DNA from: Schmidtea polychroa
Taxonomy: Eukaryota
Assembly: GCA_044892525.1 (NCBI GenBank)
Contig: CM097885.1
Coordinates: forward strand, 14,944,001-15,008,000
Length of the DNA: 64,000 bases
Reading direction: 5' to 3'
Of this stretch, positions 1 to 18,683 are shown one piece after another (within the stretch, counting starts at the first letter, position 1; every line of letters starts with the position of its first letter). The position numbers and the translations under genes are program-made. Below the pieces are notes generated by a model. That model was not told where the DNA came from, did no database searches, and saw nothing but the letters and a program-made list of their open reading frames with translations.

Positions 1-155
1 CTATCTACTCCTAGTGTATCCGACAAAATATTTTGTCCCCCTATGGGTAATGCTCACAAGGGTACTGGTCACGCTCAACAAATCAACAAATCAACAAAAC
101 ATACATTTATTTAAACAATAAAATAATGTAAAATTAACAAAGGTAAACTAAATAT
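1..155. repeat. Inner portion of left terminal inverted repeat
   Basis: Reverse complement of 17360-17514 with 2 mismatches seen; includes the 16-bp palindrome GACAAAATATTTTGTC. Confidence 0.95.
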
Positions 156-783
156 ATATAGTATGATATTCATTAATCAGTGTTGAACAGGCTTGACACT
201 TGCGAACATTCTTCTCATGACACTTAGAACAAACAATTACGTGACCACACGGTAAATACAAAACCGAAACTCGATTTTCTTTACAAATTGAACAAGTTAA
301 ATATCTTTTCTTAACATCTTTCAATTTTTTCGTTAGCTTATTTTCAATCAAATCGGCTTTCGCTATCCATTCATAAATCAATCTACTATATCCAGGTTTC
401 AACCTTAAAAACATACAACTCCAAAAGTATTCATTCAGTGAATCGTTGTTTACTGCTATTTTTTCTAAGTACATTAAATAACAAGATAACTTTAAAATGG
501 ATTTCTCATAATTAAATAAATCAAACAAATATTCAATAGAGGAATGTTTGAAAATTTTTAAAATATTTATGAGTTGCTTATCACTGTAAGTATCATGATT
601 ATTTATAAAATCTTCAAGTGTATTGTTAAAAAATGTCAATGAAATTTCAGAATAGGCTGGACTTAATTTTTCCTTATTTCTAGTAGGACTTCCTTGCTAT
701 AAATGACATATAAAAAAAAATTGCCAAAATAATAAAGTTACCAAATGTGTTACACATTCATCGGTTTTATTTGTATAAATCAT
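148..783 (-). CDS. C-terminal RING-HC (IAP/MDM2-type) E3 ligase-like protein, about 196 aa, 2 exons (742-783, 148-696)
   Basis: CSICKENRVSVLYLPCGHVIVCSKC...CQAC at the extreme C-terminus. A 45-bp GT-AG intron (697-741) joins ATG 783 in frame. No BIR domain recognisable. Confidence 0.8.
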
Positions 784-923
784 TATTAAAAACTAAATTA
801 CTTTTGTTTTTTTTTACATTTATAAAAATTGTGATAACCAATCAAAATAGAGCTTTCAAAATGTAACCATCAAATGTATAACAATAATAAGCATGACTAG
901 TACCCTTTGCAACCTGTTTTAAG

Positions 924-1136
<213 letters not shown>

Positions 1137-1141
1137 TTCAT

Positions 1142-1303
1142 TGATATAGCTGCATGCTCACTGCAGACTATATATAAAAATACTGATATAGCTGCATGCT
1201 CACTGCAGACTATATATAAAAATACTGATATAGCTGCATGCTCACTGCAGACTATATATAAAAAAACTGTTATAGCTGCATGCTCACTGCAGACTATATA
1301 AAA
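1142..1303. repeat. 4 x 42-bp tandem repeat with dyad core TAGCTGCATGCTCACTGCAGACTA
   Basis: Units start at 1142, 1184, 1226 and 1268. Confidence 0.95.
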
Positions 1304-1528
1304 ATCACCATTAAATATAAAAAATTATAATAAAACACCAAATACTTAAAAAATTAAAAAAAAATCTGATTAAAAATTTTATTGAATATGTATATATAAA
1401 TACAAGTTTTATACAATATACAGGTTTTTGTACAAGTTTTTAAATAAAAGTTTCTATACAATTTTTTTTATAAATCATGAAATCACTATACAAGTTTTTA
1501 TAAATCAAAAATATAAAGTTTTTTCTAT

Positions 1529-4500
1529 TTAAATTTGATCTTCGTCCCATTCGCTGTCGTCAAAACTGGGACTTGGAGCTGCACTGAATTCCTCATCATA
1601 TTCGCTTAATTCGTCAACTCCTAAATAGTGCCCAAATGCGTAACTTAAGTTCTTCCCTAGCCACGCGCGCTTATCATCATTATTACTTAGGGCAATTTTC
1701 GAATTTTTAAAAGTAAAAAGTTGGTGATTTCTAGTACCTATTCTAGTCTGCGGTACAGAAATCACCTGATTTGAATGAAAGCAATTTAGATATGATTCGT
1801 GATTTATTGATGTCCCTGGTAATTTAACCCCTTTCGCTTTTACTGTTTCCTTACTACCTAAAAGACTATAACATTTAGGGCGTAAGAAAACCCATTCGGA
1901 ATAACCTAATCCCTTGCTCTCATCTTTAAACTTCCCGATGACAGAGTCAAGGTTCCTATTATATAAGGGGTGTGTTGGATCGTAATTTGACGTATCCAAT
2001 AAATTATCAGAGATCATCTGAGGTAATAGAGTTGTTAATTTTAAATTTTTAATTTCCAAAAAGAAACTGTCGGTATCACCGGCAATAATATTAATTATAC
2101 ATTTATATTGGCGTCTGTACTTCTCCAAATCAATATATTGGAGCTGGTACATCCGCAGTTTAGACAGATCTAGTACTGTTTGACCAATGTAGCTAGGTCT
2201 GTCTAAACAAATCACATCTTTTTCTAAATGTGCCGCAATCAGATCGTTATCGATTCTTATGGACTTTCTGAAAGTCGGCTTTGAGGAGTATACTATCATC
2301 TTTTCGGATGAATTACACAACCTCAAATTCATTCTTTTTTTCAAATTTTCAACCGATTTACCGTAAAGAGAGTTATTATACAATTTAAACAAGTCCCTAT
2401 ATATCTCGCTAGTAGACTGAGATCGTAAAGTGGTGTTGGTGTCTATGTAGGATTTAAAGATAGGTCCTTGTTTAAACTTTATACACCTATGAATATTTAC
2501 AACAACCGCACCTAATTCTATATACAATTTGAGAAGCCTCCAATGAAGAACATAGTTCCTCTTTGGCCAATGCGTAAGCATAAGCTTCTCAACTTTTGAA
2601 TTAGGTGGGCACAACTTTTCCGGCGCAAGCGGAAAATCATTCAAAAAGTCATGCACACATTCCGGAATATCGATATCGACCTCCATAGTATACCCATATG
2701 GAAGGTTATCAATATCCGTGTTCATACATTCAAGTAAAACATCATTCAAGTTATTATTCACCCAAGAAAAATCACCATACGGAAGATTTTGGCTAAGAGC
2801 CCAACCATACAGATTATTTATATCAATGTACAATAATTCTGTATCATCTGAAGTAGCCGTGTAATGTTTGTTAACAAATGTTAACCCACCCCGGATACCT
2901 CCCTCATAGAAATTATACATTTCCATGTCCTGCAGAAGTTCTATTGGTTCCGTTAATGTCATAAGCGCTGAGGCCCATGACATACCGGGAATCCCGTAGA
3001 AATTAAGAGGATCCAGACCTTTGTAAGCAATTGCCTTACCGCGGAATTGCTGAAAATAATCTGCGAGGAGGTATACGTCCAATTTTAGGTAGATTAACAT
3101 ATAATCTAACAAATTATTACAGTTATGCTGACTCCAAATTAGTTGAGCCTCAGCGTACTGATCTTCCGTAACATCAGACCAAATAGGAGGTAATTCTAAA
3201 GTCGATTCAAGAACATCTAAAGAAGTAGCGAAATTATATGGAAAGATACCTTTAGAGTGAATCATCGACCCTTGAAAGACAGACGAAGTTAACGGAAAAG
3301 TAGTTAAGGTTTTCACAGCTTTTGCTAAAGAACAATTAACAAATTGCATGCTGTCAATAAAACGAACAGGCAATTTGTTAATATATGCAATTAAAGATAT
3401 AAATTTTTCTGTAGAGGTAGGTATAATATTAAGTTCCCAAAGGGGAAAATCACTGAGACCATGTTTTAAAATATGGTGGAGGTCATAGCCTCGTAAATTA
3501 TGAAAGACAACAGGTAACAATTTATTAATCCTGCGAGAAACATTGCATTTCCTACATGCCGCTCCGACATATCTACCTGTAAAATGACAATGATCTCTCA
3601 CAGGATTAATAATAGATTTTTTACACAAATAACAAATAGTGGAAGATCGAAAGGCACGCTCCTGAGCAAAAGACAAAGTAGACATACCTTTACGACCTTT
3701 AAGATCATAATATGGCAGGACAATTGTGACAGCAATTTCCTCCACTTTCCTCAAAAAATCCAAAATACAATTAGGTCCAAAAAAATAATAATAAAATTTT
3801 GTGTTTGTATAATTATTAATTAATAAAAGACCTGCTGATATGGGTAAATGTATTTGATGATATGTTTCATGTTCTGGTAAAACCGATTCAAAATCGGCAT
3901 AAATTACGAAGGGAGGTGTAACTGTTTTTGCGTAATCTGTGAATAATAAATCCTTATTTTTAGGAAGTGTATACAAGGTTGTGCCAGTCTGATTTTTACA
4001 GCATAGAGCAACATGCTGATCGAAAGCATTCTTATATCTAAAGCCATTTAAACAATGTGGGCACCAGTTACACCTTATTTGAACGTTAACATTTTCATTT
4101 AAATGGCAATTCATTAATTTGTCCAAGTCTGTCACGGCCGTATAATGATATTTATCTTTATTACTCAAAAGTAATAAATAAATTGGCCTACCATCTATAA
4201 CCTTGGAGCGATGTATGATATTAAGATGAGGGTGGTGAGCTACATAATCCTGAGAAATATCACTATCAGTACTGGCTGGATTATACGAAAGAACGTTTAT
4301 GCTTAAATTTAAATCACGATTTTTCCTTTCAAATTTAGGAATGTTACATAGCCTCATCGGGCAATCGGTGTCTTCGTCATAATTTAATAGAGGTAAAAAT
4401 TCTATATATTTGGCGGCTCTTTGGTGATTACGACCTATTTCTTCTCTTTTTAAAAGTGCAAGAATGCTATATAAGAAACACTTATGGTCGTTGTTTTTAA

Positions 4501-5645
4501 CGTTAATTATTGCATGTTTTAATTTTAAAGCCGATGGGGTTTTTATATAGCTATGTCCGGATAATCTACTAACGGGTGCGTATTTCGTTAAAATAAAATC
4601 TATCTCTAAAATATTCACTACTCGCCACCCGCTTCCTAAATAGGTGAATTGCTCAATCTTTTCATTTAATTTGCTCACCCCCTCGTTTATAAAATTTGCT
4701 GAAAAAACTTGCGCATTGTTTGAAAAATAATTATCCCGGATCTCCCCATCTTTTTCAAATTTAATTAAAATTGTAAATTGGATTTTTACATTGCCCATCT
4801 TTTCTATTTCCTCTATTAATCTTTCTTCAATTTTTGATGTTAGGGCTATTTTAACCAGGTTTTCATTTCTTATATTAAATTTTAAAGTTTTACGTGATCC
4901 ATTCAAATCGGATTCAACAACTGGTTCAAACAAAGAGCCGCCTATTTGAAATATGTTGAAAGACGTTGAAGCTACACATTCATCATTGATGACTATCACT
5001 TCTTGTTGTGTAATGGGTGCTTGTTGTGTAATGGGTGCTTGTTGTGTAATGGGTGCGTTGCTGATGACTATCACTTCAGGTCGCGATAATTTATTAGGAA
5101 TGTAACTTTTAATTAAACCAGCAGGTCTTTTAATAGAATCTTTTTTAATATTTATAATATCTTTTTTAATAATATTTATAGTATCTTTTTTAATAATAAT
5201 AGCATCTTTTTTAATAGAATCTGTTTTTTCTTTTATAATATTTTTTTTAATATTTTTTAAATCTTTTTTAATATCTTTTTTTAAATCTTTTTTAATAATA
5301 TTTTTTGGTAAATTTTTTGATAAATTTTTTTGTAATTTTTTATTTATTTTTTTAAATAAAACATTTTTTGATATCGAAAATTGCCCTAAGTGACTATGAT
5401 GTTTATTAAAAAATTCCCTATATTTTATTTTTTCGCTCGTTACGCATTTGGGGCATATAAAAAAGTTGAGCGAATTAAACGTCTTTTTGTAGTACTTTTT
5501 CATTGTGCGATGACATTTATCGCTATGTCCATTTGCAGCTTGACAATAATTTGGGTATAGTCTACCTGTTAAATAATAAAATTAAAGTTTTTTCTTTTTT
5601 TTCTAATTGTTATTAATTGTTACATCTATAAGGATTTATCATCAT
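1529..5645 (-). CDS. polB: Protein-primed family B DNA polymerase (pPolB); probable 22-nt first exon 5624-5645
   Basis: Exo motifs YADFES and FHNLRGYD; KGIFPY, YIDINNLYG, KLYNNSLYGK, GDTDS, LRPKCY. OTU-like DHKCFLYS...HY segment, C2H2 finger and EndoVII-like CYLC..RDHCH..C..CN. The frame is open to an acceptor at 5566, and intron 5566-5623 gives the N-terminus MMINPYRCRLYPNYC. Confidence 0.96.
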
Positions 5646-5788
5646 TTGTTATTTAATTCAAATGAACTATATAACAAATGATGATAAATCTTTATAGAAA
5701 ATAGGTTAATAGAGAATATTAGAGAGATTTTAGTATATGGGTCAGATTATTATATGTTAAATATTAGACGAGTAAGATTATTATTATT

Positions 5789-5869
5789 AAAGAGAAGTAG
5801 CTGCATGCTCACTGCAGACTACTATATAGCTACATGCTTACTGTAGACTACATTAGAAGGGTCAGATTA

Positions 5870-5941
<72 letters not shown>

Positions 5942-6020
5942 AGAGAAGTAGCTGCATGCTCACTGCAGACTACTATGTAGCTACATGCTTACTGTAGACT
6001 ACATTAGAAGGGTCAGATTA

Positions 6021-6078
<58 letters not shown>

Positions 6079-6164
6079 TTATAAAAGAGAAGTAGCTGCA
6101 TGTTCACTGCAGACTACTATATAGCTACATGCTTACTGTAGACTATAGTAGAAGGGTCAGATTA

Positions 6165-6236
<72 letters not shown>

Positions 6237-6315
6237 AGAGAAGTAGCTGCATGCTCACTGCAGACTACTATGTAGCTACATGCTTACTGTAGACTACATT
6301 AGAAGGGTCAGATTA

Positions 6316-6378
<63 letters not shown>

Positions 6379-6379
6379 G

Positions 6380-6456
<77 letters not shown>
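5789..6456. repeat. 4 x ~80-bp conserved units separated by variable (ATT)n spacers
   Basis: Units AAAGAGAAGTAGCTGCATGC...GGGTCAGATTAT start near 5789, 5940, 6085 and 6235. Confidence 0.93.
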
Positions 6457-6457
<1 letters not shown>

Positions 6458-6559
6458 TTAACTATTGTAGATGCACATTGCAAACTACAAGGATTTTATA
6501 ACTATAATTTTGTAATAACTTTTTAAATATTTTCATAATAATTTCAAAAACATAGTATT

Positions 6560-7030
6560 TACTTCATAAATCATTTTCTTCATAATTTTCGTCATAAGTT
6601 TCATCATAATTTTAGTCATAAAGTATTTTCATCATAAATTTTCGTCATTATTTCATCATAATTTTGGTCATAAATCATAAAGCATTTTCATTATAATTTT
6701 GGTCATAAATCATAAAGCATTTTCATTATAATTTTGGTCATAAAGCATTTTCATCATAATTTTGGTCATAAATCATAAAGCATTTTCATCATAATTTTGG
6801 TCATAAATCATAATAAATCATTTTCATCATAATAATTCATTTTCATCATAATTTTGGTCATAAAGCATTTTCATCATAAATTTTGGTCATAAATCATTTT
6901 CATCATAATTTTGGTCATAAAGCATTTTCATCATAAATTTTCTTCATAATCATTTTCTTCATAAATCATTTTTTCATCATAATTTTTTGGCATATTTTCA
7001 TCATAAAATCATTTTCTTCAACAGTTTCAT
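6560..7030. repeat. Degenerate minisatellite (CATTTTCATCATAATTTTGGTCATAAAG-like units)
   Basis: Irregular tandem units; no sustained reading frame. Confidence 0.85.
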
Positions 7031-7122
7031 TATAATTTTTATCCAAATATTTAAAATATTTTTTATCAAAATGTTTTTTTTATGAAAATATTTAAAAAGT
7101 TGTTACGAAATTTTAATAAATT

Positions 7123-8000
7123 TTAATATAAAAAATATAAAAATAAATGAATCTTACATTTCGATTCCATATCGGAATCAGAGTCCTCCTCATTAGAAGC
7201 GATGTCATTCATTTCGTCCATATTAGAATCAGAGTCCTCCTCATTAGAAGCGATGTCATTCATTTCGTCCATATTAGAACTATTATCGGAATCATCATCT
7301 TCAGCAATTTCATAATCTTCGGCATCAATGTCAACATTGAAAACATTTGAATTTGAATTTGAACATTTGAAAACATTTGAAACATTTTCTAAAATGAAAA
7401 ATTAATTTAATAAAGTGAAAAATAATAAAATTTACTTTTTTCTTCGAAAACCTTGTTTTGCCCAACATTCTTAACTGGGGCATCAATAAATATCAAATCC
7501 TCATCGGCATTAATTTCTTCGTCTTCGCTAATAGTAATAATACTAGGTTCTAAATGCAAAAATTAATTTAATAAAATTTAAAATTATAAATTTACCGATG
7601 ATATTTTCCGTATTTAAAATCGATTCGGCATTAATTTCTTCATCGTCGTCGCTAATAGTAATAATACTAGGTTCTAAATGCAAAAATTAATTTAATAAAA
7701 ATTAAAATTATAAATTTACCGATGATATTTTCCGTATTTAAAATCGATTCGGCATTAATTTCTTCATCGCCGTCGCTAATAGTAATAATACTAGGTTCTA
7801 AATGCAAAAATTAATTTAATAAAAATTAAAATTATAAATTTACCAAAGATATTTTCTACATTTAAAAGCGAATCGTTTTCGGTAACCTCATACCAGTCGA
7901 ATGGTTCTAAATAAAATAGAATAAAATATAATAAAATAGAAAAAAATAAATTACCATTCGTCAAAAGACCTCTCAATACTCGATTCTTGTTGCTTTCCAT
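7123..8000 (-). CDS. Six-exon acidic protein (about 214 aa) with tandem SUMO-interacting-motif-like repeats
   Basis: Exons 7955-8000, 7844-7906, 7720-7797, 7596-7673, 7436-7549, 7123-7388. Five 46-48 bp GT-AG introns, all phase 1, give an uninterrupted frame with 3x EPSIITIS(D/E)xxEE. The 3' end is uncertain (possible further donor at 7157). Confidence 0.8.
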
Positions 8001-8517
8001 TTTGGTTTTTTTTTCGAATTGATTGTGAAATAGATTTTCAAAATTTTAAAATAATTGTGACAAATTTTAGATTTGTCAATGTTTATAAAGAGAATGAATA
8101 TTTTCCTGTCCCAGCCAATGAGAATATAGACACACACACATATACATTGAATATTTTACTCTCTCAACCAATCACACGCATGCATGTATGTAATGTAAAT
8201 CAGTCAGAATTACATGTGACTGCCTTTGTTAGTCATGCCTTTGTTAACTTGCACTGTGCATGCCTCAGGCAAAGGTAGTCTTTATGTTACAAATAATAAT
8301 ATTTATTAGAATAATAATAAAATTAATTAAAAATAATAATATTTTTCACAATAATAATAATATTAATAATAATATTAATAATAATAATATTAATAATAAT
8401 AATAATAATACTATTAATAATAATATTAATAATAATAATATTAATAATATTAATAATAACACAACAACAAAGGAAAGGATACATTTATTAAACATCAAAT
8501 TTATTAAACATTTTTCT

Positions 8518-8904
8518 TTAAACATCAAATTTTTTGTACAATAACCAAGCTAAACAATGTTGACCGCATGTTTGGGTCAAAGGATTTTGAAACATAGTTT
8601 TATTATACACAATAGGTTTTCCCATTGTTTGTAGTTTTGATATCAACAAAGCTGGGTAATAGAAACCCATAGGATCGAACACGAATATATTACCAGGTTT
8701 CACATATATAGCTATCCAATGTTCTCCACCAAGATGAGACGATTGAGTATTGACGATTATTGCTTGATTATTGCTCAAATATGGAATTTTATCAAGAGGA
8801 AAAACTCCAACAAATTCATTTCCCAATATCTGTTTTCCGATTTTATTGACCTGAACAGAACTATTTAAATAAATCCAGAGTATAAAAAAAACAACTTACT
8901 CCAT
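8518..8904 (-). CDS. Adenain-like (C5) virion maturation cysteine protease, 2 exons
   Basis: IIVNT...GEHW...FDPMG...Q...CGQHC catalytic motifs. A 39-bp intron (8861-8899, donor GTAAGT) supplies the ATG: MDSVQVNKIGKQILGNEFVGVFP. Confidence 0.92.
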
Positions 8905-8931
8905 GATAACTTTTTGTGTTTCTGTATACAT

Positions 8932-10152
8932 TTATACCAACACGGTTCTATTTGCAGTAATTTGAACTTCATTTTCAAATACTCCATATATTATAACATG
9001 TACTGGTTCTGTAATGGCTCTTGCAAACTTTATATCCAGTCGTAAATTCCCGTTTTGTGGTAATTGACTTTGATTTAAATCAAAATCAGGGGCTAAAACA
9101 AATGTAAAAAATGGGTATTTGCTTTTAAAATCTTCTAGTGTTATTCCGCAATTCAAATTTTTATCTAAATAACCCAGATTTCTAACAATACTCTGCATAT
9201 ATGTCGCGCAGTAATTGTCATTCTCGAAATCTTGAATATATGTTTCTCTATAATCAGTATTTTTCGACAAAGTCAATGATGTAACACCAAAGTTTTTGAA
9301 AATTGAGCTGGACGCAGTGTATGATCCATTATATTGTGCTTCACTTTGAAATGTTATCAGAATAAAATTAGGCATTCTTCTGTCACCAAATATTTGTTCT
9401 TTATAGAATGATGAAGCACCTTTAGCAATAGCAAATTGTACAATTTCCTTTGTTTTTAAGGGATAAATTGCATGTTTTGAATTAAGACCCAATTGATGAC
9501 CAGCTAATACAGAGGGGTCTACTCGAACTCTTCTCACCAATAATTTTGCATCAACTAATTGACATATTGGTGTAGTAGTTGCACTAGTAAGAGATAATGC
9601 AGAATCAGACCTTTTCAGTCTAATATGTACATTAACCCCCGGTAGTAAATATTTCGGTTGATCCATAAAATCAAGTTGTAACGATGAGCACATGGTGAAA
9701 ACCTTTGAGCCTTTTACCCACTTTTTTCTTTCATCATCACTGCCATAACCCATAGGAGTAAGACATGTATTTTTAGTATCGGAATTGTAATTTAAAATAG
9801 TTTCTATTAATGCCTTGTGAATGAATGTATTATTTCCGCCCTCAATCTTGATATTATTAAATCCCAACACTGCATCTTTAAAAAGAGTATGAAACAGGAA
9901 ATTGTTCGATATTACATCTGCATTGGCATCCAAAACTTTTCTATCTTTATCTACAACCTTAATCTGAACAGTCAATAAAGTATCATTCAAATCTAAATAT
10001 TCGGTTTGCTAACCATTAATATAAAACTCGATATCATTTCTACTATCGGTAATTGAATTCATAGGAAAAACTTCCTCAAATGCCCCAAATTCTATTACAG
10101 CCTGGGGCGACGGTCTATCAAATATACATAATTCGGATTTACCACAAATCAT
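8932..10152 (-). pseudogene. Polinton major capsid protein (double jelly-roll) with one in-frame stop at 10009-10011
   Basis: ATG 10152 (ATGA overlap with upstream stop) reads MICGKSELCIFDRPSPQAVIE...IEFYING*QTEYLDLNDT. Family motifs LDFMDQPKYLLPGV and GNLRLDIKF follow. Confidence 0.87.
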
Positions 10153-10517
10153 TTTGCAAATATAGTTCCATGTCCTTTCATTCGTTTGTTTATACGTGAT
10201 ATTCCATGTCTTTTACGTTTTGGAGCATGAGCTGGAGCTGGAGCTGGAGCTGGTTTTTGAAACATACCTGCAACCCCGGGTAAAACTTTCCCTAATTCTG
10301 CTAAAGCATTTGTTTTTAGAGATGGTAATATTTTCTGTTCATTCATAATAACATCTTTTGCAGTTTTCATACCAAAACTACCAATACGTTTAAGAATAGG
10401 CAATGCAAATCTACCTATTGTTCTCAACCATCCTGATCCGTACTGTTTACCAATAAAATATGGTAAATCACCACCAGATTGGCCACTATACATACTAATA
10501 ATATCAGAATTAGCCAT
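10149..10517 (-). CDS. Small basic Polinton virion protein (QxGxG plus amphipathic helix; core or membrane-lytic type)
   Basis: QSGG..PYF.GKQYGSGWLRTIGRFALPILK with a basic C-terminus; sits between mCP and MCP with coupled stop/start. Confidence 0.75.
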   Translation of the reverse strand: MANSDIISMYSGQSGGDLPYFIGKQYGSGWLRTIGRFALPILKRIGSFGMKTAKDVIMNEQKILPSLKTNALAELGKVLPGVAGMFQKPAPAPAPAHAPKRKRHGISRINKRMKGHGTIFAK

Positions 10518-11568
10518 TTATTTTACGAAAATGTAATGTCAAATGAGTTTTTGAGCCTTTTGGAAATTCGATTAATTGACCAGAATCATCTCTTATATTT
10601 ATTTCTATATTGTTTATACAAGATGTTGAAACAGGTAAATACATGGGATTTTCTACATTGATTTGTACAACTTCATCTTGATCATGTTTTTCAATCCATA
10701 TAGATTTCATTAAAGGAACACTAGAATCGCCAACAATAACTGGTTCCACGATATTACTGTAAATGAACATTTGCTGATGATGTTTAAGGATTTTCGGTTT
10801 GTTTGTTCCTTCACAAATTTGTTCATTTTGTGTACATACTGGTTTAGTCAATCCTAATGTTTTTGTCAAATTTGAGTCAAATTTAACTTGACTAAGATTA
10901 GAATTTATACTAAATCTAAATACTTTATCTTTTTGAAGCTCAAAAATATCGCTACAATTGTCACCTAAATAAGTTTGTAATTGTTCGAGGTCTGTAATAT
11001 ATAAATTATCTTTAAAAGTATATGCATGCTCTGTTATTTCAATGTATGACAGCTTAAATTTGAATTCCACTAAATTATTAGTTTTCGGAAGTGTAGAGAT
11101 ATTTATTTTGACTGTATCATTAAATACATTACGTAAATCAGTAAATCCAAGACGTTTAGCATCAGCCACTGTAGAAAATATAATTTCGAATGGCTTATTC
11201 AAGCAATTCATGTATAAATATTGACCATCATCATAAATTATAGGTTTCCTTGATTTCGATGAACTCGTCAAGTTATAATTATCTTTATCAATAAGAACAT
11301 TAATATATTCCGTTACTGCTACTTTCTTATTATATTCAATAACGGATTTGCTATAGATTGGGAATAAATTGTATACAAATGTAAAATCCAACAGAGCAAC
11401 TTCCCAGTCATTATCCAAATAGATAGGGTTTTGGAGTTCGATGATGAATTTGCTTGCTTGATTTTCTGGATGAATTAATGGACAACTATTGCTCGGCAAA
11501 ATAGTATAAAAATTCACTTTACTATGTCTTTTGCTGATATCCATGACGGGTTTTGATAACCATGCCAT
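10510..11568 (-). CDS. Minor capsid (penton-like) protein
   Basis: FYTILPSNS...F...L.NPIYL..DWEVAL at the N-terminus and FIYSNIVEPVIVGDS..PL...YLPV...I.I.IRD..G..I.F...T.LTLHFR at the C-terminus. Exact start codon uncertain. Confidence 0.87.
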   Translation of the reverse strand: MAWLSKPVMDISKRHSKVNFYTILPSNSCPLIHPENQASKFIIELQNPIYLDNDWEVALLDFTFVYNLFPIYSKSVIEYNKKVAVTEYINVLIDKDNYNLTSSSKSRKPIIYDDGQYLYMNCLNKPFEIIFSTVADAKRLGFTDLRNVFNDTVKINISTLPKTNNLVEFKFKLSYIEITEHAYTFKDNLYITDLEQLQTYLGDNCSDIFELQKDKVFRFSINSNLSQVKFDSNLTKTLGLTKPVCTQNEQICEGTNKPKILKHHQQMFIYSNIVEPVIVGDSSVPLMKSIWIEKHDQDEVVQINVENPMYLPVSTSCINNIEINIRDDSGQLIEFPKGSKTHLTLHFRKING

Positions 11569-12146
11569 TTGACATAGTATTGTTTATCCTTACCGACCTT
11601 TTTAGTTTTCAATATTTTTTGAATTCTAAATACTTTTGGGGGAGGAATGACTTGTAATTCCTGCTCATAAAATTTCCCCTGTAAAATATTATTATCATTG
11701 TCTTTGATGACATACATTACAGGATTCTGTTTAGTATTTATTTTTGAAATTACAAAGACTTCATCACTCCAATTTGTATCAAAATTTTTAATAAATGGTG
11801 ATGCACTAATTTTACTAATTCTAACATGGTCACCGACTTTATATTTAGGTTTTGCAATTTTTACAGATTTCTTAGAAGTCAATGATGTTTTTGATGTAAT
11901 ATCAACCGGTCTCAATCCATTCAGTCCTCGATGTGATGAATGATTATAACTTGTTATTATTTTCGGTAAAGCATTTACCCATTTTTTATTACCTTGATGC
12001 ACGAACAATTTCTTTAATCGATCTCTCAATGTTCGATTAAATCTTTCAACATGGGCAGCTTTGTATTGAGAATGTACCGAGTAGTGATTTATTTTCAGTT
12101 TATCGAGGATTTGCTTAACTTTACTATTGTAGAATTCTTTACCTAA

Positions 12147-12238
<92 letters not shown>

Positions 12239-12626
12239 CTAAATCTGTTTGCAAGTTATTAGGATGTCCGTCTTTAAATAAAATATTAATTGCCTTGGAC
12301 ATTTCTTCTGCAGATTTTGCCTTGACCGGTATTGCTCGTGCAAACCTGCTGTATACATTAATACATGTTAAAATATATTTATTCCCATTGTTAATTTTCG
12401 AATATGGTATCATCTCCATCAAATCCATTTGCCATAAATCGTCAATACCAAATGTTTTATACGCTCTTGTTGGAAATCTTTTCCGCATTGGTTTGTTCAA
12501 ACTGTACGCAAGCTGATCTGATAACCACTTCTGGGTTTCTTTTTTCGAATTCGGAACTCTTTTGTTTAATTTTGCCACTCCACCGAAACCGGCTTCGTCT
12601 TCTGGGTTCGTCCAAATCTTCTCCAT
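11514..12626 (-). CDS. Retroviral-type (rve) integrase with C-terminal chromodomain; 96-bp microsatellite intron 12143-12238
   Basis: DDE motifs WQMDL, QTDLG/KEFYN (restored by splicing) and VERFNRTL; chromo-like YYVKWHGY..SW. Confidence 0.94.
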
Positions 12627-12684
12627 TACAACAAGAAGATTTAAAATTAAATTTAATGTCGGGCAATGAAGGATTAGCACCCAT
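12457..12684 (-). CDS. Putative small N-myristoylated protein overlapping the integrase 5' end
   Basis: 75-aa ORF starting just after the upstream stop at 12688; MGANPS, CC and a basic cluster. Confidence 0.35.
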   Translation of the reverse strand: MGANPSLPDIKFNFKSSCCNGEDLDEPRRRSRFRWSGKIKQKSSEFEKRNPEVVIRSACVQFEQTNAEKISNKSV

Positions 12685-12687
12685 TGT

Positions 12688-13221
12688 TTATGATTGATTT
12701 CCTACAACTCCACCTAATAATGATAATGCCAGAGGTATTAATGCGCCAATAAATCCACCTTGTTGTTTATATATAATTTTTCTCATTTGCTTACGATTTT
12801 TATTATTTACTAAAGATAACAATGGTTTCCTATGTTTGCTCAATAAATGCTTTTTTGATTTACTGATTTTAATTTTGCCTTTGACTACTTTAAGTATAAT
12901 ATTGAGTAAATCATCGACAACAAAATTTGGGAATGATTGCAATATATTCATTCTTTTCATACTCGGGGCCTTTAACAATGCATTAAAAAATGGAAAACTG
13001 CGATGATTTTTAATTACTTTTTTACCGGCTTTACGGGTTTTACGGGTTTCACGTTTAGGTTTAGGATTTTTCGAAATAAGATTCATTGCAGAGAAATTTC
13101 CAGTTACAAGTTTTTTAGATGGTGTATAACTAGTTGTTGGTGGAACTTTTGGAACTTTAATACTCTTTTTAATACTTTTTCTTAATTTCCTAATATTTTT
13201 CACCCTTGCTTTTAGAAACAT
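12688..13221 (-). CDS. Very basic Polinton core-like protein with C-terminal QxGGF plus hydrophobic tail
   Basis: Lys/Arg rich; ends KQQGGFIGALIPLALSLLGGV. Confidence 0.78.
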   Translation of the reverse strand: MFLKARVKNIRKLRKSIKKSIKVPKVPPTTSYTPSKKLVTGNFSAMNLISKNPKPKRETRKTRKAGKKVIKNHRSFPFFNALLKAPSMKRMNILQSFPNFVVDDLLNIILKVVKGKIKISKSKKHLLSKHRKPLLSLVNNKNRKQMRKIIYKQQGGFIGALIPLALSLLGGVVGNQS

Positions 13222-13239
13222 TATTATTCATAGAGGTTT

Positions 13240-13866
13240 TCAACTTTGTTTATAAACCATGGCACCTTTTGGGTTGAAAATATCTGTTTTTACTCGTAAA
13301 TCATCGGGACATTGTTGTGTGAAATCAAGAAATATATATCCATGAGGTATTTTTCTAGCATCTTGAAATGCACTGATAAGAAAATTACGATTGTTAGGGT
13401 ATGCTTGACGTGCAAGAAAATCAATCACTGTTGCATCTCTAGGATTCTTGAAAATGACTAAATACTGTACATTTAAATTACGTGTTCGATGTGCCCCACC
13501 TTGATGAAATAGATTTTGAGTTATGAAAATAACTGTTACACCGACATGTCTGCTGATCTTTGTAAATAAATTATTAAAATCTTTTTCTTTATTAGCTTCT
13601 TGATACAAATCATCGATAATAATGACATCACCTTTCTTTAATCGGCTGGACCAGTTTTTATCGAATACCTTTACTATTTTCATGTTTTTTAATTTACAGA
13701 AACTTGATTGAGTTAATCCATGTTCTTCATCAGCACCCCTATGCCAATAAATCCTGTTGAATTTTGATTTGAATAAATTTGATTTTAGTAATTTACAAAC
13801 AAATAATGTTTTTCCACTACCACTCGGACCAACGATTTGGTATACTGCATCATTTCTTAATTCCAT
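13240..13866 (-). CDS. A32/FtsK-HerA type genome packaging ATPase
   Basis: Walker A GPSGSGKT, Walker B IIIDDL, SRH...FITQNLF, FKNPRD. Confidence 0.95.
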   Translation of the reverse strand: MELRNDAVYQIVGPSGSGKTLFVCKLLKSNLFKSKFNRIYWHRGADEEHGLTQSSFCKLKNMKIVKVFDKNWSSRLKKGDVIIIDDLYQEANKEKDFNNLFTKISRHVGVTVIFITQNLFHQGGAHRTRNLNVQYLVIFKNPRDATVIDFLARQAYPNNRNFLISAFQDARKIPHGYIFLDFTQQCPDDLRVKTDIFNPKGAMVYKQS

Positions 13867-13965
13867 TTCAAAGATTTTATAAATGGATATTTGTTTATAT
13901 TCGATGATTTAATGAACTCATGCTCAATTTGTATATAAAGACTAATTTTCATAAATGATTTAATA

Positions 13966-14403
13966 ATGTTAGCAAATATAAATTATCGAGGAAATTTTGA
14001 TGTATCGAATATGAGGTTCCCACCAGGGAAACCTCAGCAAATTATCGATAGAAGCGGGAAATATCCGATAATATTTTTCAAGACTGGTAAATGCCGAATC
14101 ATGGGATGTAAGAAACCTTTGGATATTAATAAATTACAATATCGAATAAATAATATTAAAATCCAATCAATTACCGTTACTATGGATATGGGACATAGTA
14201 TCAATCTATATAACATGTCGAAAAAATGTGATTGTATGTTTGAACCGGAATTGTTTCCGGCACTAAGACTAATAAAATATAACCCTATATGTGTCAACGT
14301 GTTTGCTAGTGGAAAGGTTGTCATGTTGGGGTTGAGAAATTTGGAGTATAGAGAATTTGTTGACAATGTTCGAAATGAGATAATTTCATTGGTCGATTTT
14401 TAA
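13966..14403 (+). CDS. TATA-binding protein (TBP)-like protein
   Basis: Two TBP repeats: IFFKTGKCRIMG and INL...FEPELFPAL...VNVFASGKVVMLG. Confidence 0.88.
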   Translation: MLANINYRGNFDVSNMRFPPGKPQQIIDRSGKYPIIFFKTGKCRIMGCKKPLDINKLQYRINNIKIQSITVTMDMGHSINLYNMSKKCDCMFEPELFPALRLIKYNPICVNVFASGKVVMLGLRNLEYREFVDNVRNEIISLVDF

Positions 14404-14473
14404 TTGGTTAATTTCTAATTGGTTATTGATTGATTTAAACAAACGGTTTTTTGTTTAGAATTCATTTTTCACT

Positions 14474-14891
14474 ATGTACAAAATACCAAGCTCTGCAACC
14501 CTCATGAAGGATATTGACGATTCCGGTAAATTTAAAATTTTTATTTTCACATTATTTACTATTTATTATTTTAGAAAAATATATCAAAGTTATGATCAAT
14601 AGAATAAAATATTATTATCCGCAAATCAATGAAATTATCAAGGATAGAGAAGCAGAAATAATTCCGGACCTCATTTTCTACAAAACACAAATTAGAATAA
14701 TGGAGGTATTTCACCAGTTTCTGTGGGATTTAAAGATAAACAGAAGCATCAAACAAATGGAGCCAGAGTACCAGTGCATCATCGGATGCTCATGCTGTGC
14801 CGATCGATATCGGCGATATGTCGAATGGGAGTTAGTGAAAACTCTGCGAAGGTTTCACTACTCCCGGATTGTAGATCTTGGATATGAATAA
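14474..14891 (+). CDS. Hypothetical protein, 2 exons (14474-14525, 14575-14891)
   Basis: A 49-bp GT-AG intron (14526-14574) joins MYKIPSSATLMKDIDDS to EKYIKV...; Cys cluster CIIGCSCC; AATAAA overlaps the stop. Confidence 0.65.
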
Positions 14892-15295
14892 ATGTATTTT
14901 TGTATCTGTTGTGTTTTTATATTTGAAATAGTAATAAATAATAGTAATAAATAATAATATTAATAATAATAGAAATAATAATAGTAATAATAGAAATATG
15001 AATAGTAATAATAATAGAAATAATAGTAAAAAAACATTAATAATAATAATGAAACACATTATTAATAAATCTGTAAATAGAACATATAACAAAACATGTA
15101 ATAATTAAAACATTAATAATAAAACACATAAATAATAAATCTGTAAATAGAACATATAACAAAACATGTGACAATGCAACATCAATGCATTTTGAATGCA
15201 ATTTTAAACAAAGACATGCTGTAATCTGATTGGTTGATAGACATGAGTCAAAGGTATAAAAACCCTGTAACATTTCAATTTATTCATTATTCACG

Positions 15296-15706
15296 ATGAC
15301 CAAGAAAATTTCAAGCACCGAAAAACCAAAAGAAATGGTACAACCAGTTCAAATGTTCCACAACTACAAAATGTATTTTTTGAAAGAAGAAATCAATATG
15401 AAATTGGTTGCACCAGTCAAGCTAATTCCAACTAAATTCGAATTCTTATCCGGCACGCTTTCAATGATTGATGTCAAAACTATTGATGATGTTTTTAAAC
15501 GGATAGATTCGAATCTATCGTGTAATCAACATGCATGGTTCAACAATAGATATGCAAGATTTTATGATGCTTTTGATGAAATCAGTTTCAAAGAAAATGA
15601 AAATTGGTATATAACAATAGCAATCCAGGGATATAAAGTTGATAATAATGATGTATATTCTCCTATTTGGAAAATTATGTCTGCTAGACTTTCACAAATA
15701 TTTTAA
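15296..15706 (+). CDS. Hypothetical protein, possibly an OB-fold ssDNA-binding protein
   Basis: Own CCAAT/TATA promoter and AATAAA. C-terminal ITIAIQGY..YSPIWKI..ARL resembles viral SSB strands (impression only). Confidence 0.55.
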   Translation: MTKKISSTEKPKEMVQPVQMFHNYKMYFLKEEINMKLVAPVKLIPTKFEFLSGTLSMIDVKTIDDVFKRIDSNLSCNQHAWFNNRYARFYDAFDEISFKENENWYITIAIQGYKVDNNDVYSPIWKIMSARLSQIF

Positions 15707-15832
15707 TGTTATATTTAATAAATGTATTAGTCAGATTTGTTTTTCTCTTTATTAATTGCAACATAAATGCAAATGACCTGCAAATTTAACAAAGAAAATC
15801 TATAAACAAAATTATAATATAGTTTTAAAGTG

Positions 15833-16218
15833 ATGAAAATGACTGCAGAAAAAGGTTAACATGATTAATTAATTACCGAATTATTTATTATTTAGAATTT
15901 TTAATCAACTTTTTGTTGGAAAAGTTAGCAGAAATATCTGGTGTGAAAATGGAGGATATATTATCTATTACAAATGCCTTAAATATCGGCTGGTTAGTTG
16001 AGAGTCAAGATACAGGATTTGATGATGAGGAAGAAACTCAAGAAATTGATGAGGAAGAAACACAAGAGGAAATGTATGAACCTATAGAGGAACCTATAGA
16101 GGAACCTATAGAGGAACCTAAAGATGAATCTAAAGATAATATTACGAATGATTGTATTGATCATGTCGTTGAAAATATAATGAAATGTGGAGATGACGAC
16201 TGCGAATGTGTTAATTAA
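15833..16218 (+). CDS. Small acidic protein with EEPI repeats, 2 exons (intron 15855-15895)
   Basis: A 41-bp intron joins MKMTAEK to EFLINFLLEKLAE in frame. Confidence 0.6.
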
Positions 16219-16286
16219 TAAATCTTAGTGTTTGTAAATTTATTTAAAATTTTATTTAAAAATCAAACAAAATAACTATATAAATT

Positions 16287-16801
16287 TTATTTAAAAAAAC
16301 GACATAAAACATATAAAATAGCAACACCTGTTGCAAGTTTTAAATAGTTTTTAAATTGGATTTTTTGCTGATCTAATTCTTTTGCATTTCTGGCGAGTCG
16401 ATTCAGCACGCCCCATCCGCCATTGGCTTCAATCCATGGCTGAAACTTTGACTTGATTATCTAGAAAATATATATTAATAAAATATAGATTATAAAAGTA
16501 TTACTTCTTGAGACCACTGATAATAGTGCTCGGAATCCAATAGGCTTTTTTCAATTATTATCTTCATATAAGCGAACCCTACTAATATTCGGGTCCACTT
16601 CATCTCCTCGTCGCATAAGCAATTAAATATTCTATTAAAATAGAATTTCTTTGTTTCGAGGGAATCGGAATTGAGGACGTCCTCATAATCAATGTGATTA
16701 CCTTCTATAATCTTTTCGGTCCGATCGACCAGGAAAATTAGGCTTTCCATAATATTCCTGTTGATGAGTTCTCTTAACATATTTTCCATTAAATTAGACA
16801 T
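16287..16801 (-). CDS. Bcl-2 family protein (156 aa), 2 exons (16505-16801, 16287-16460)
   Basis: BH1-like DEEMKWTRILVGFAY. After a 44-bp intron: BH2 PWIEANGGW and tail anchor YLKLATGVAILYVLCRFFK*. Confidence 0.87.
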
Positions 16802-17359
16802 TTTTACAATATTTTAAAATATGATGTTTTATTTATACTAATACCGGATGATTTTGATTGGTTGATAGACTATAAATGTAAAAGAAAGGTTTTGATTTGA
16901 TACACCATGAAAACTATATTCATATTGCTAATTATTATAACGAGTGTGTGCTCACACAATACAACAATAACAGTGGAGTCTTTTAATAAATCAATATGTG
17001 TTTGTCCGAATACAGCCAAGTTGATGGATATTTTATATATTCTCGACAAACCAAAATGGTCAAAGCATCCAGGAAAAAGAATATCTCAAAGATTGGAGAA
17101 TTTAGAAAACAGTTATGAACTATCATTTGAATATATACAAAATATAAAATTTGAATTGATTGATCATATTAAGGTTTTCAATAACTCTATTGTTGAAAAT
17201 AAAATGAATATGAAAATAATTGATAAGAAGCATGATTATTTGTTAAAAAAGATTGAATTATTATTAAGAGAAATTCAAACAATCAAAGGATCAATAGAAT
17301 CTCTGAAAATCAATTCAACGTTACCAATTTCTAACAATATTGCTGCGAATAGTACATCA

Positions 17360-18683
<1,324 letters not shown>

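Follow-up and report, generated by a model that had tools for sequence, protein, structure and literature searches.

An acidic region with several motifs resembling SUMO-interacting motifs (SIMs) appears to be encoded by a run of short leader exons at 7158–8000 of the window (the whole 64,000-nucleotide stretch of Schmidtea polychroa DNA analysed here), on the minus strand within a Maverick/Polinton. The reading we favour, to which we give a probability of about 0.55, is that these exons are spliced via a 1.6-kb intron onto the protein-primed DNA polymerase of the element, pPolB, as a tail that would likely bind SUMO chains. Mavericks are usually annotated as sets of intronless ORFs, so a multi-exon pPolB leader of this kind would be missed by ORF calling, and the real replication protein would be longer than annotated.

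The element and its leader exons

The element occupies positions 1–18683 of the window, with no strand assigned, and continues 1.1 kb beyond the left window edge for a total of ~19.8 kb. It has ~1.3-kb TIRs, a 6-bp target-site duplication and the Maverick/Polinton core genes, namely pPolB, an rve integrase, an A32-type ATPase and an adenovirus-type C5 protease. Pox_A32 and Peptidase_C5 were matched in Pfam, as was rve below the cut-off (E 1.2e-5), and pPolB was identified from its relatives, adintovirus PolB included. The integrase carries a chromodomain, and the gene content also includes a RING protein and a TBP-like protein (13966–14403, plus strand; PF00352, E 1.3e-15), the latter present too in one of the related families described below (family X). 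Two ORFs (8932–10008 and 10510–11568) had no match in Pfam, and they are labelled double jelly-roll major and minor capsid proteins by position only. The AT-rich host genome comprises 781 Mb, with four chromosome-scale contigs, and has introns of ~46 nt. The element family is large, the pPolB 5′ region being matched at 89–100% in 150 of 150 scored candidates.

In size, TIRs, AGT-type termini, target-site duplication (6 bp) and core genes the element resembles vertebrate Mavericks, of which intact elements are reported as intronless in the accessible text (Barreat and Katzourakis 2021, PMC8097293), whereas here short spliceosomal-type introns are predicted in the leader, pPolB, RING, protease and integrase regions. 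The apparent intron of the integrase gene (12147–12240, minus strand) is almost all (ATT)n microsatellite, with TTAG|GTA repeated at its flanks; in the window copy its frame is kept by chance, and it reads as poly-Ile.

The leader, like all features of pPolB described below, lies on the minus strand. Its promoter-like region (8082–8172) has ATTGG, a CCAAT box, at 8172 and 8119 and TATAAA at 8087, a layout found upstream of the leader, RING and other element genes; the TATA-bearing anchor is present in most copies. Exon 1 (7955–8000) begins with the ATG at 8000 and comprises 15 codons, including an LxxLL motif (LRGLL), before a phase-1 donor. Exon 2 (7844–7906; 63 nt), the most conserved, encodes the acidic-aromatic PFDWYEV. 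SIM-like motifs follow in exons 3 (7720–7797; IITISDGDEE) and 4 (7596–7673; IITISDDDEE), of 78 nt each, and in exon 5 (7436–7549; IITISEDEE and DEDLIFID), while exon 6 (7158–7388), in which a 51-bp stretch is duplicated, encodes an acidic tail containing FNVDID and ends at the phase-1 donor T|GTAAG (7157). The introns between them (48, 46, 46, 46 and 47 nt) are GT–AG and phase 1 throughout. All 66 exon-1 ends that were parsed retain the LxxLL, its x positions varying, and exon 2 has a conserved acidic W-[YF]-x-V; both suggest binding sites other than SUMO.

Leader exons were parsed with no frame imposed, which succeeded for 100 of 106 loci, and 86 of the 100 parsed copies had stop-free leaders. 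Internal exons were a multiple of three in 404 of 415 cases (39 distinct such lengths), as against 79 of 315 introns. Because the exons keep frame while the introns vary freely, we regard short-intron splicing and coding constraint of the leader, strongly supported by the DNA alone, as nearly certain, and the same figures uphold the proposal in the initial annotation that spliced exon–intron units were duplicated. Donors of the short introns are of the GTAAAT type in 313 of 315, weaker than the GTAAG of the last donor. A tree of 31 promoter–exon 2 stretches left 12 of 27 branches open, and no argument here draws on it. In a few loci (L040, L137, L054–L055) the leader has internal deletions and the pPolB 5′ end is kept.

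A search for intron-less genomic copies gave 0 matches to the leader–pPolB and exon 1–exon 2 junction patterns. Contig runs were compared with a one-unit copy, over a stretch that ended short of the pPolB acceptor: two of them (X2, X5) look like DNA, and two that we guessed to be RNA (X1, X6) cover introns and promoter too, with no GT–AG intron among the six joints listed. At thin cover, the start of one X1 loose end (4 contigs) coincides exactly with the donor predicted for the homologue of exon 5, and beyond the last leader donor the depth of X1 is zero.

Duplication units and SIM-like motifs

TRF resolved a 124-bp unit repeated 3.0 times at 7504–7875 (minus strand) and a 51-bp unit repeated 2.4 times at 7157–7279. 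The longer units, 105–116 of 124 nt identical, each hold 46 nt of intron and 78 exonic nt. The initial annotation had described them as a tandemly repeated 78-nt exon plus 46-nt intron in phase 1; tandem repetition and phase are as described, but the unit boundaries are out of register with the exon, the unit consisting of the 3′ part of exon 2, the intron and the 5′ part of exon 5. The 78-nt exons 3 and 4 are therefore hybrids, and one-unit copies are without them. Since 124 bp is not a multiple of three, frame is kept only once the 46 nt are removed. A duplicated acidic tail, also noted earlier, does correspond to the 51-bp repeat, but among the window-type copies listed it occurs in the window's own copy only.

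Exon copy number does vary across element copies, with 1, 2, 3 or 5 units. Among intact copies, IITIS occurs once in 7, twice in 13 and three times in 8; an additional copy contains five units. Sister lineages have no IITIS and carry DDDVVF[LI]G-type motifs instead, 1–6 times, multiplied by duplication of a whole exon plus intron (99+42 nt), by other exon–intron units or by within-exon repeats; in some lineages VNVLSEDE is repeated up to eight times. At least five differently bounded duplications carry the SIM-like core and some tail duplications do not, and duplication of exons 1–2 was seen in none.

The motifs first pointed out, PSIITISDGDEE, PSIITISDDDEE, PSIITISEDEE, DEDLIFIDA and VFNVDID, are all present in the leader translation. 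Host proteins with several SIMs include RNF4 and those with DAXX/PML-type phospho-SIMs. A SIM is described as a hydrophobic core with acidic or Ser flanks (PMC12751080, accessible text), which the leader motifs match. The DEDLIFID of the window aligns with the family-wide DDDVVF[LI]G, and this in turn agrees nearly letter for letter with EDDDVVFI, given as the first SIM of ZMYM5 (PMC3493543, accessible text). The likeness to ZMYM5/ZMYM2 as described there extends from the hydrophobic core and acidic/Ser flanks to the tandem arrangement and the acidic low-complexity region. Unlike such host proteins, the leader lies in a mobile element, is polymorphic in copy number by exon–intron duplication, is likely attached to a DNA polymerase and has no RING in the chain.

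SIM-like motifs number 4 in the 203 leader codons compared with 7 in the 3,526 codons of 11 other element ORFs, and 4 compared with 1.15 in shuffles (P = 0.012, for a pattern written after the motifs had been seen); the same post hoc pattern gave P = 0.064 in a one-unit copy. Each intact copy has 2–10 such motifs, again by the post hoc pattern, with several hydrophobic cores and adjacent acidic or Ser residues. We consider it fairly likely that the leader binds SUMO, as these motifs predict.

An alignment search with the SIM exons for homologues gave one weak match only (E 2.0), to a 104-aa NCBI protein on a 7.8-kb contig (P0150) with four DD[VD]V[IF]F[IV]-type motifs, likely convergent with the leader motif. 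A search of viral contigs for homologues returned nothing, and one of the ESM Atlas was uninformative (best 0.79). Host SUMO was not recovered from the genome, the matches examined being ubiquitin, NEDD8-like or other ubiquitin-like ORFs. Ubiquitin-like domain matches number at least 150 genome-wide, many within 500–1400-codon open frames of repeated elements.

The proposed junction between leader and pPolB

In the window family the last leader donor is GTAAG in 104 of 106 loci, with T at −1 in all. No stop is conserved before or after it. The protein end first placed at 7123 is the stop met on reading through the donor at 7157, and this read-through spans 10–52 aa in a frame that varies among copies, so that 7123 was rejected as a conserved C-terminus. 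The long intron that we propose (5566–7157) has 1592 nt in the window and 888–1792 nt in 84 copies, and includes a satellite, (AAT)n runs and an array of palindromic motifs. Sense AATAAA is absent from it in the window copy and depleted in the interval generally, with none in 58 and one in 26 of the 84 copies (0.31 compared with 3.87 in shuffles, the copies not being independent). The satellite (6564–6988) was considered as coding sequence and rejected, its units not being multiples of three and all frames having stops. Arrays of a near-palindromic ~24-bp motif lie beside (AAT)n both here, upstream of pPolB (5777–6490, 8 copies), and at the RING gene (1142–1304, 4 copies); the motif, likely regulatory, has 0–14 copies per element and is common to two of the families described below (Z and W).

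The pPolB main exon (1529–5565; 1344 codons) opens at a phase-1 acceptor, AG|GT (5566), in frame with the leader donor at 7157. The codon formed at the junction would be a Cys, matching in alignment the first Cys that relatives conserve in their N-terminal domain, and the first Met within the main exon comes at codon 19–21 (codon 21 in the window), beyond three more conserved Cys/His residues. The predicted fused protein would have 203+1+1344 = 1,548 residues, in the order leader, Cys/His domain, linker, TP, vOTU and polymerase. The Cys/His domain (5318–5563) is likely metal-binding, its first Cys being the splice-junction codon, and has no Pfam match. It occurs in 29 database relatives, often repeated 2–3 times, many of which start at a Met one to four residues ahead. 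A structure model of it (pLDDT 82) found no fold match above Z 2.7, which does not imply a novel fold. Two of the relatives (P0139, P0145) have C2H2-like fingers and SIM-like motifs upstream. Further along, a model of pPolB residues 200–520 (pLDDT 91.9) shows a Y-family little-finger fold, the terminal-protein-like domain (4580–4900; 4IR1, Z 8.4, rmsd 2.3, 90 aligned), and then an OTU fold, the vOTU-like protease domain (4118–4543; OTU matches at Z 5–7), with a Cys and a His invariant in 64 sequences. These Z scores are middling (8.4 and 5–7), yet they agree with the published TP–vOTU assignment, in which the 4IR1 match had already been reported (Krupovic et al. 2024, PMC11071308, accessible text).

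The same pairing of a T|GT donor with an AG|G acceptor is kept in five other families (Y, Z, V, W and X), whose polymerases are 38–56% identical to that of the window; three of the five are without a canonical alternative start, and the junction Cys is kept across all six families. In family Y (56% identical) a promoter and three short phase-1 exons ending in T|GTAAG precede a donor–acceptor gap of 204–206 nt in 12 of 12 polymerase copies, with no ATG mini-exon in the three checked. The SIM leader of family Z (50–54%) is clearly homologous and combines the two motif types within a single exon; the donor is present in 15 of 19 loci, and a proximal ATG exon in none of 19. The pair is present in 4 of 4 copies of family V (38%), in 3 of 4 of family X and in 2 of 2 of family W, whose acceptor, AG|GC, likewise yields a Cys codon and which has a possible proximal exon. 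In one set of 30 loci, four (L294, L295, L296, L306) gave no last donor. Leaders in Y and V have no clear SIM. At many family Y loci (L269–L273) the pPolB genes form inverted pairs, 4–8 kb apart, that diverge from a short central region. We consider it likely, on this comparative conservation of donor and acceptor, that in at least one isoform the leader exons are spliced onto pPolB; no spliced transcript of the candidate leader was seen.

SIM-like motifs also occur within the N-terminal region of pPolB itself, in family X (a tandem EIIVIMDSEEE), in family V (EIIVISDDDDE), in three database proteins (P0008/11/12) and in the pPolB of the window. Five of 22 close relatives have them (13 motifs compared with 3.5 expected, 11 of them from three related proteins), as does only 1 of 53 distant relatives. 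The SIM leader was found in none of 26 metagenome loci examined, out of 75 that were mostly too short upstream; metagenomic relatives start at a Met just ahead of the Cys, and several have their own TATA. When pPolB residues 1–330 were compared with proteins of 739–2352 aa, 0 of 7128 candidates matched.

The best-surviving rival holds that the leader yields a stand-alone poly-SIM protein of ~210 aa only, through intron retention or a tiny terminal exon, which would soak up SUMO chains or compete with SUMO-dependent silencing, while pPolB starts separately. In 82 of 84 window-family copies pPolB has an alternative proximal first exon (5624–5645; an ATG and 7 codons, with a phase-1 T|GTAAC donor, a 58-nt intron that ranges over 55–61 nt among copies, and a TATA-like site at 5696). 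Given this exon, the TATA-like site and the motif array, the window family can probably initiate pPolB independently of the leader. Terminal exons of 3–8 codons would result from several conserved AGs in the interval. In family Z a read-through stop is conserved in 14 of 15 copies and followed by 2–6 AATAAA, and family X has 11 AATAAA; a short form is thus plausible there. Planarian Polintons are described as silenced by piRNA/PIWI and H3K9me3 (PMC8532177), and in flies piRNA silencing is described as requiring SUMO (10.1101/533091), as far as the accessible parts of both reports go. Against this reading, the window family has no conserved stop, families Y and Z conserve Cys/His codons ahead of the first Met without another ATG-bearing exon, and the junction Cys is kept in six families. 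We therefore think it unlikely, and the stand-alone protein that the initial annotation took for the main product is disfavoured, since in all likelihood the exons run on into pPolB, as the in-frame donor and acceptor of several families indicate.

Possible roles and further rivals

If the leader is indeed joined to pPolB, cleavage between TP and vOTU, hypothesised for Polinton polymerases (PMC11071308, accessible text), would keep the SIM tail joined to the terminal protein that is fixed to the DNA ends. There, with an avidity that may be tuned by copy number, it could direct the genome, during replication or integration, to SUMO-rich chromatin or repair sites, or alternatively buffer SUMO-dependent silencing locally; nuclear DNA viruses are described as replicating beside SUMO-rich bodies (PMC7077188, accessible text). 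A polymerase without the leader, starting at the proximal exon, may be made as well, as may a short unspliced SIM protein. More tentatively, and as a possibility that we hold less probable than the fusion itself, a clade of animal Mavericks may bear a poly-SUMO-binding tail at the TP end of the polymerase, its valency evolving by exon–intron duplication. After vOTU cleavage this tail would stay covalently on both genome ends and guide replication or integration by way of host SUMO, and leaderless and free-SIM forms would arise from alternative first exons and intron retention.

The window pPolB shares the TP–vOTU–EXO–PALM plan of Polintons, with a little-finger TP, an OTU-like fold with Cys/His, the standard gene set, TIRs and a 6-bp target-site duplication; it differs in that TP is preceded by an additional Cys/His domain and likely also by an acidic SIM-like leader of several exons, a leader of which the accessible text of that study makes no mention (Krupovic et al. 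2024, PMC11071308). Among the openly accessible papers searched, we found none that links Polintons with SIMs or spliced leaders. Should the more tentative scenario above hold, it would amount to a novel route by which a self-synthesising element engages silencing and repair based on SUMO. In young, multi-copy lineages SIM-like motifs have been multiplied repeatedly and independently, which suggests an arms race over the contact with SUMO, and the natural series of 1–6 motifs offers a direct test of whether a transposon-virus tunes SUMO avidity and of how Maverick genomes choose replication or insertion sites.

A second rival, improbable in our judgement, takes the leader for an acidic hub or activation domain, of a kind we presume to be E1A-like, with its LxxLL, its acidic-aromatic exon 2 and a W-x-x-V that we take to be possibly LIR-like; its repeats would bind a partner other than SUMO or be tolerated slippage in a disordered linker. 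Conservation within the leader is highest at the LxxLL and in the PFDW-type exon 2, and simple repeats and non-SIM duplications are frequent in these elements. Yet the differently bounded duplications noted above carry the SIM-like core, exons 1–2 were not seen duplicated, and the family-wide motif is nearly identical to the ZMYM5 SIM.

The last rival, which appeared in the initial annotation, pairs the SIM protein with the RING protein of the element as a split SUMO-targeted ubiquitin ligase (STUbL). In heterodimeric STUbLs of the Slx5–Slx8 type a SIM subunit binds a RING subunit. Both genes lie within the element, and one source treats ICP0 as a potential STUbL that carries SIMs (PMC12751080, accessible text). 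HSV-1 ICP0 and VZV ORF61 likewise offer a parallel of nuclear DNA viruses engaging SUMO through SIMs, as predicted for this virus-like element, with the difference that their SIMs are fused to a RING ligase, whereas the leader described here is in frame with pPolB and RING is encoded by a gene of its own (PMC12751080 and PMC7077188, accessible text; see also PMC3161977). The RING gene (148–783, minus strand) has its own ATTGG/TATA promoter, a first exon of 14 codons ending in phase 0 (742–783), an intron (697–741) and a second exon (148–696), and its product matches zf-C3HC4_3 (Pfam, E 5.7e-10). With this promoter and a phase-0 acceptor facing the phase-1 leader donor, a SIM–RING fusion was rejected: in each of 30 copies the splice would break the frame and meet a stop after four further codons, so SIMs and RING do not share a polypeptide. 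As the RING protein has no SIM-like motif and pPolB suits the leader better as an in-frame partner, we give the split ligase very little chance, and no result points to a partnership in trans. The RING is 95–100% identical among the 150 matches listed, and at C1:8.68–8.73 Mb its exon forms a tandem array with a ~1-kb period and more than 40 units among the matches listed.
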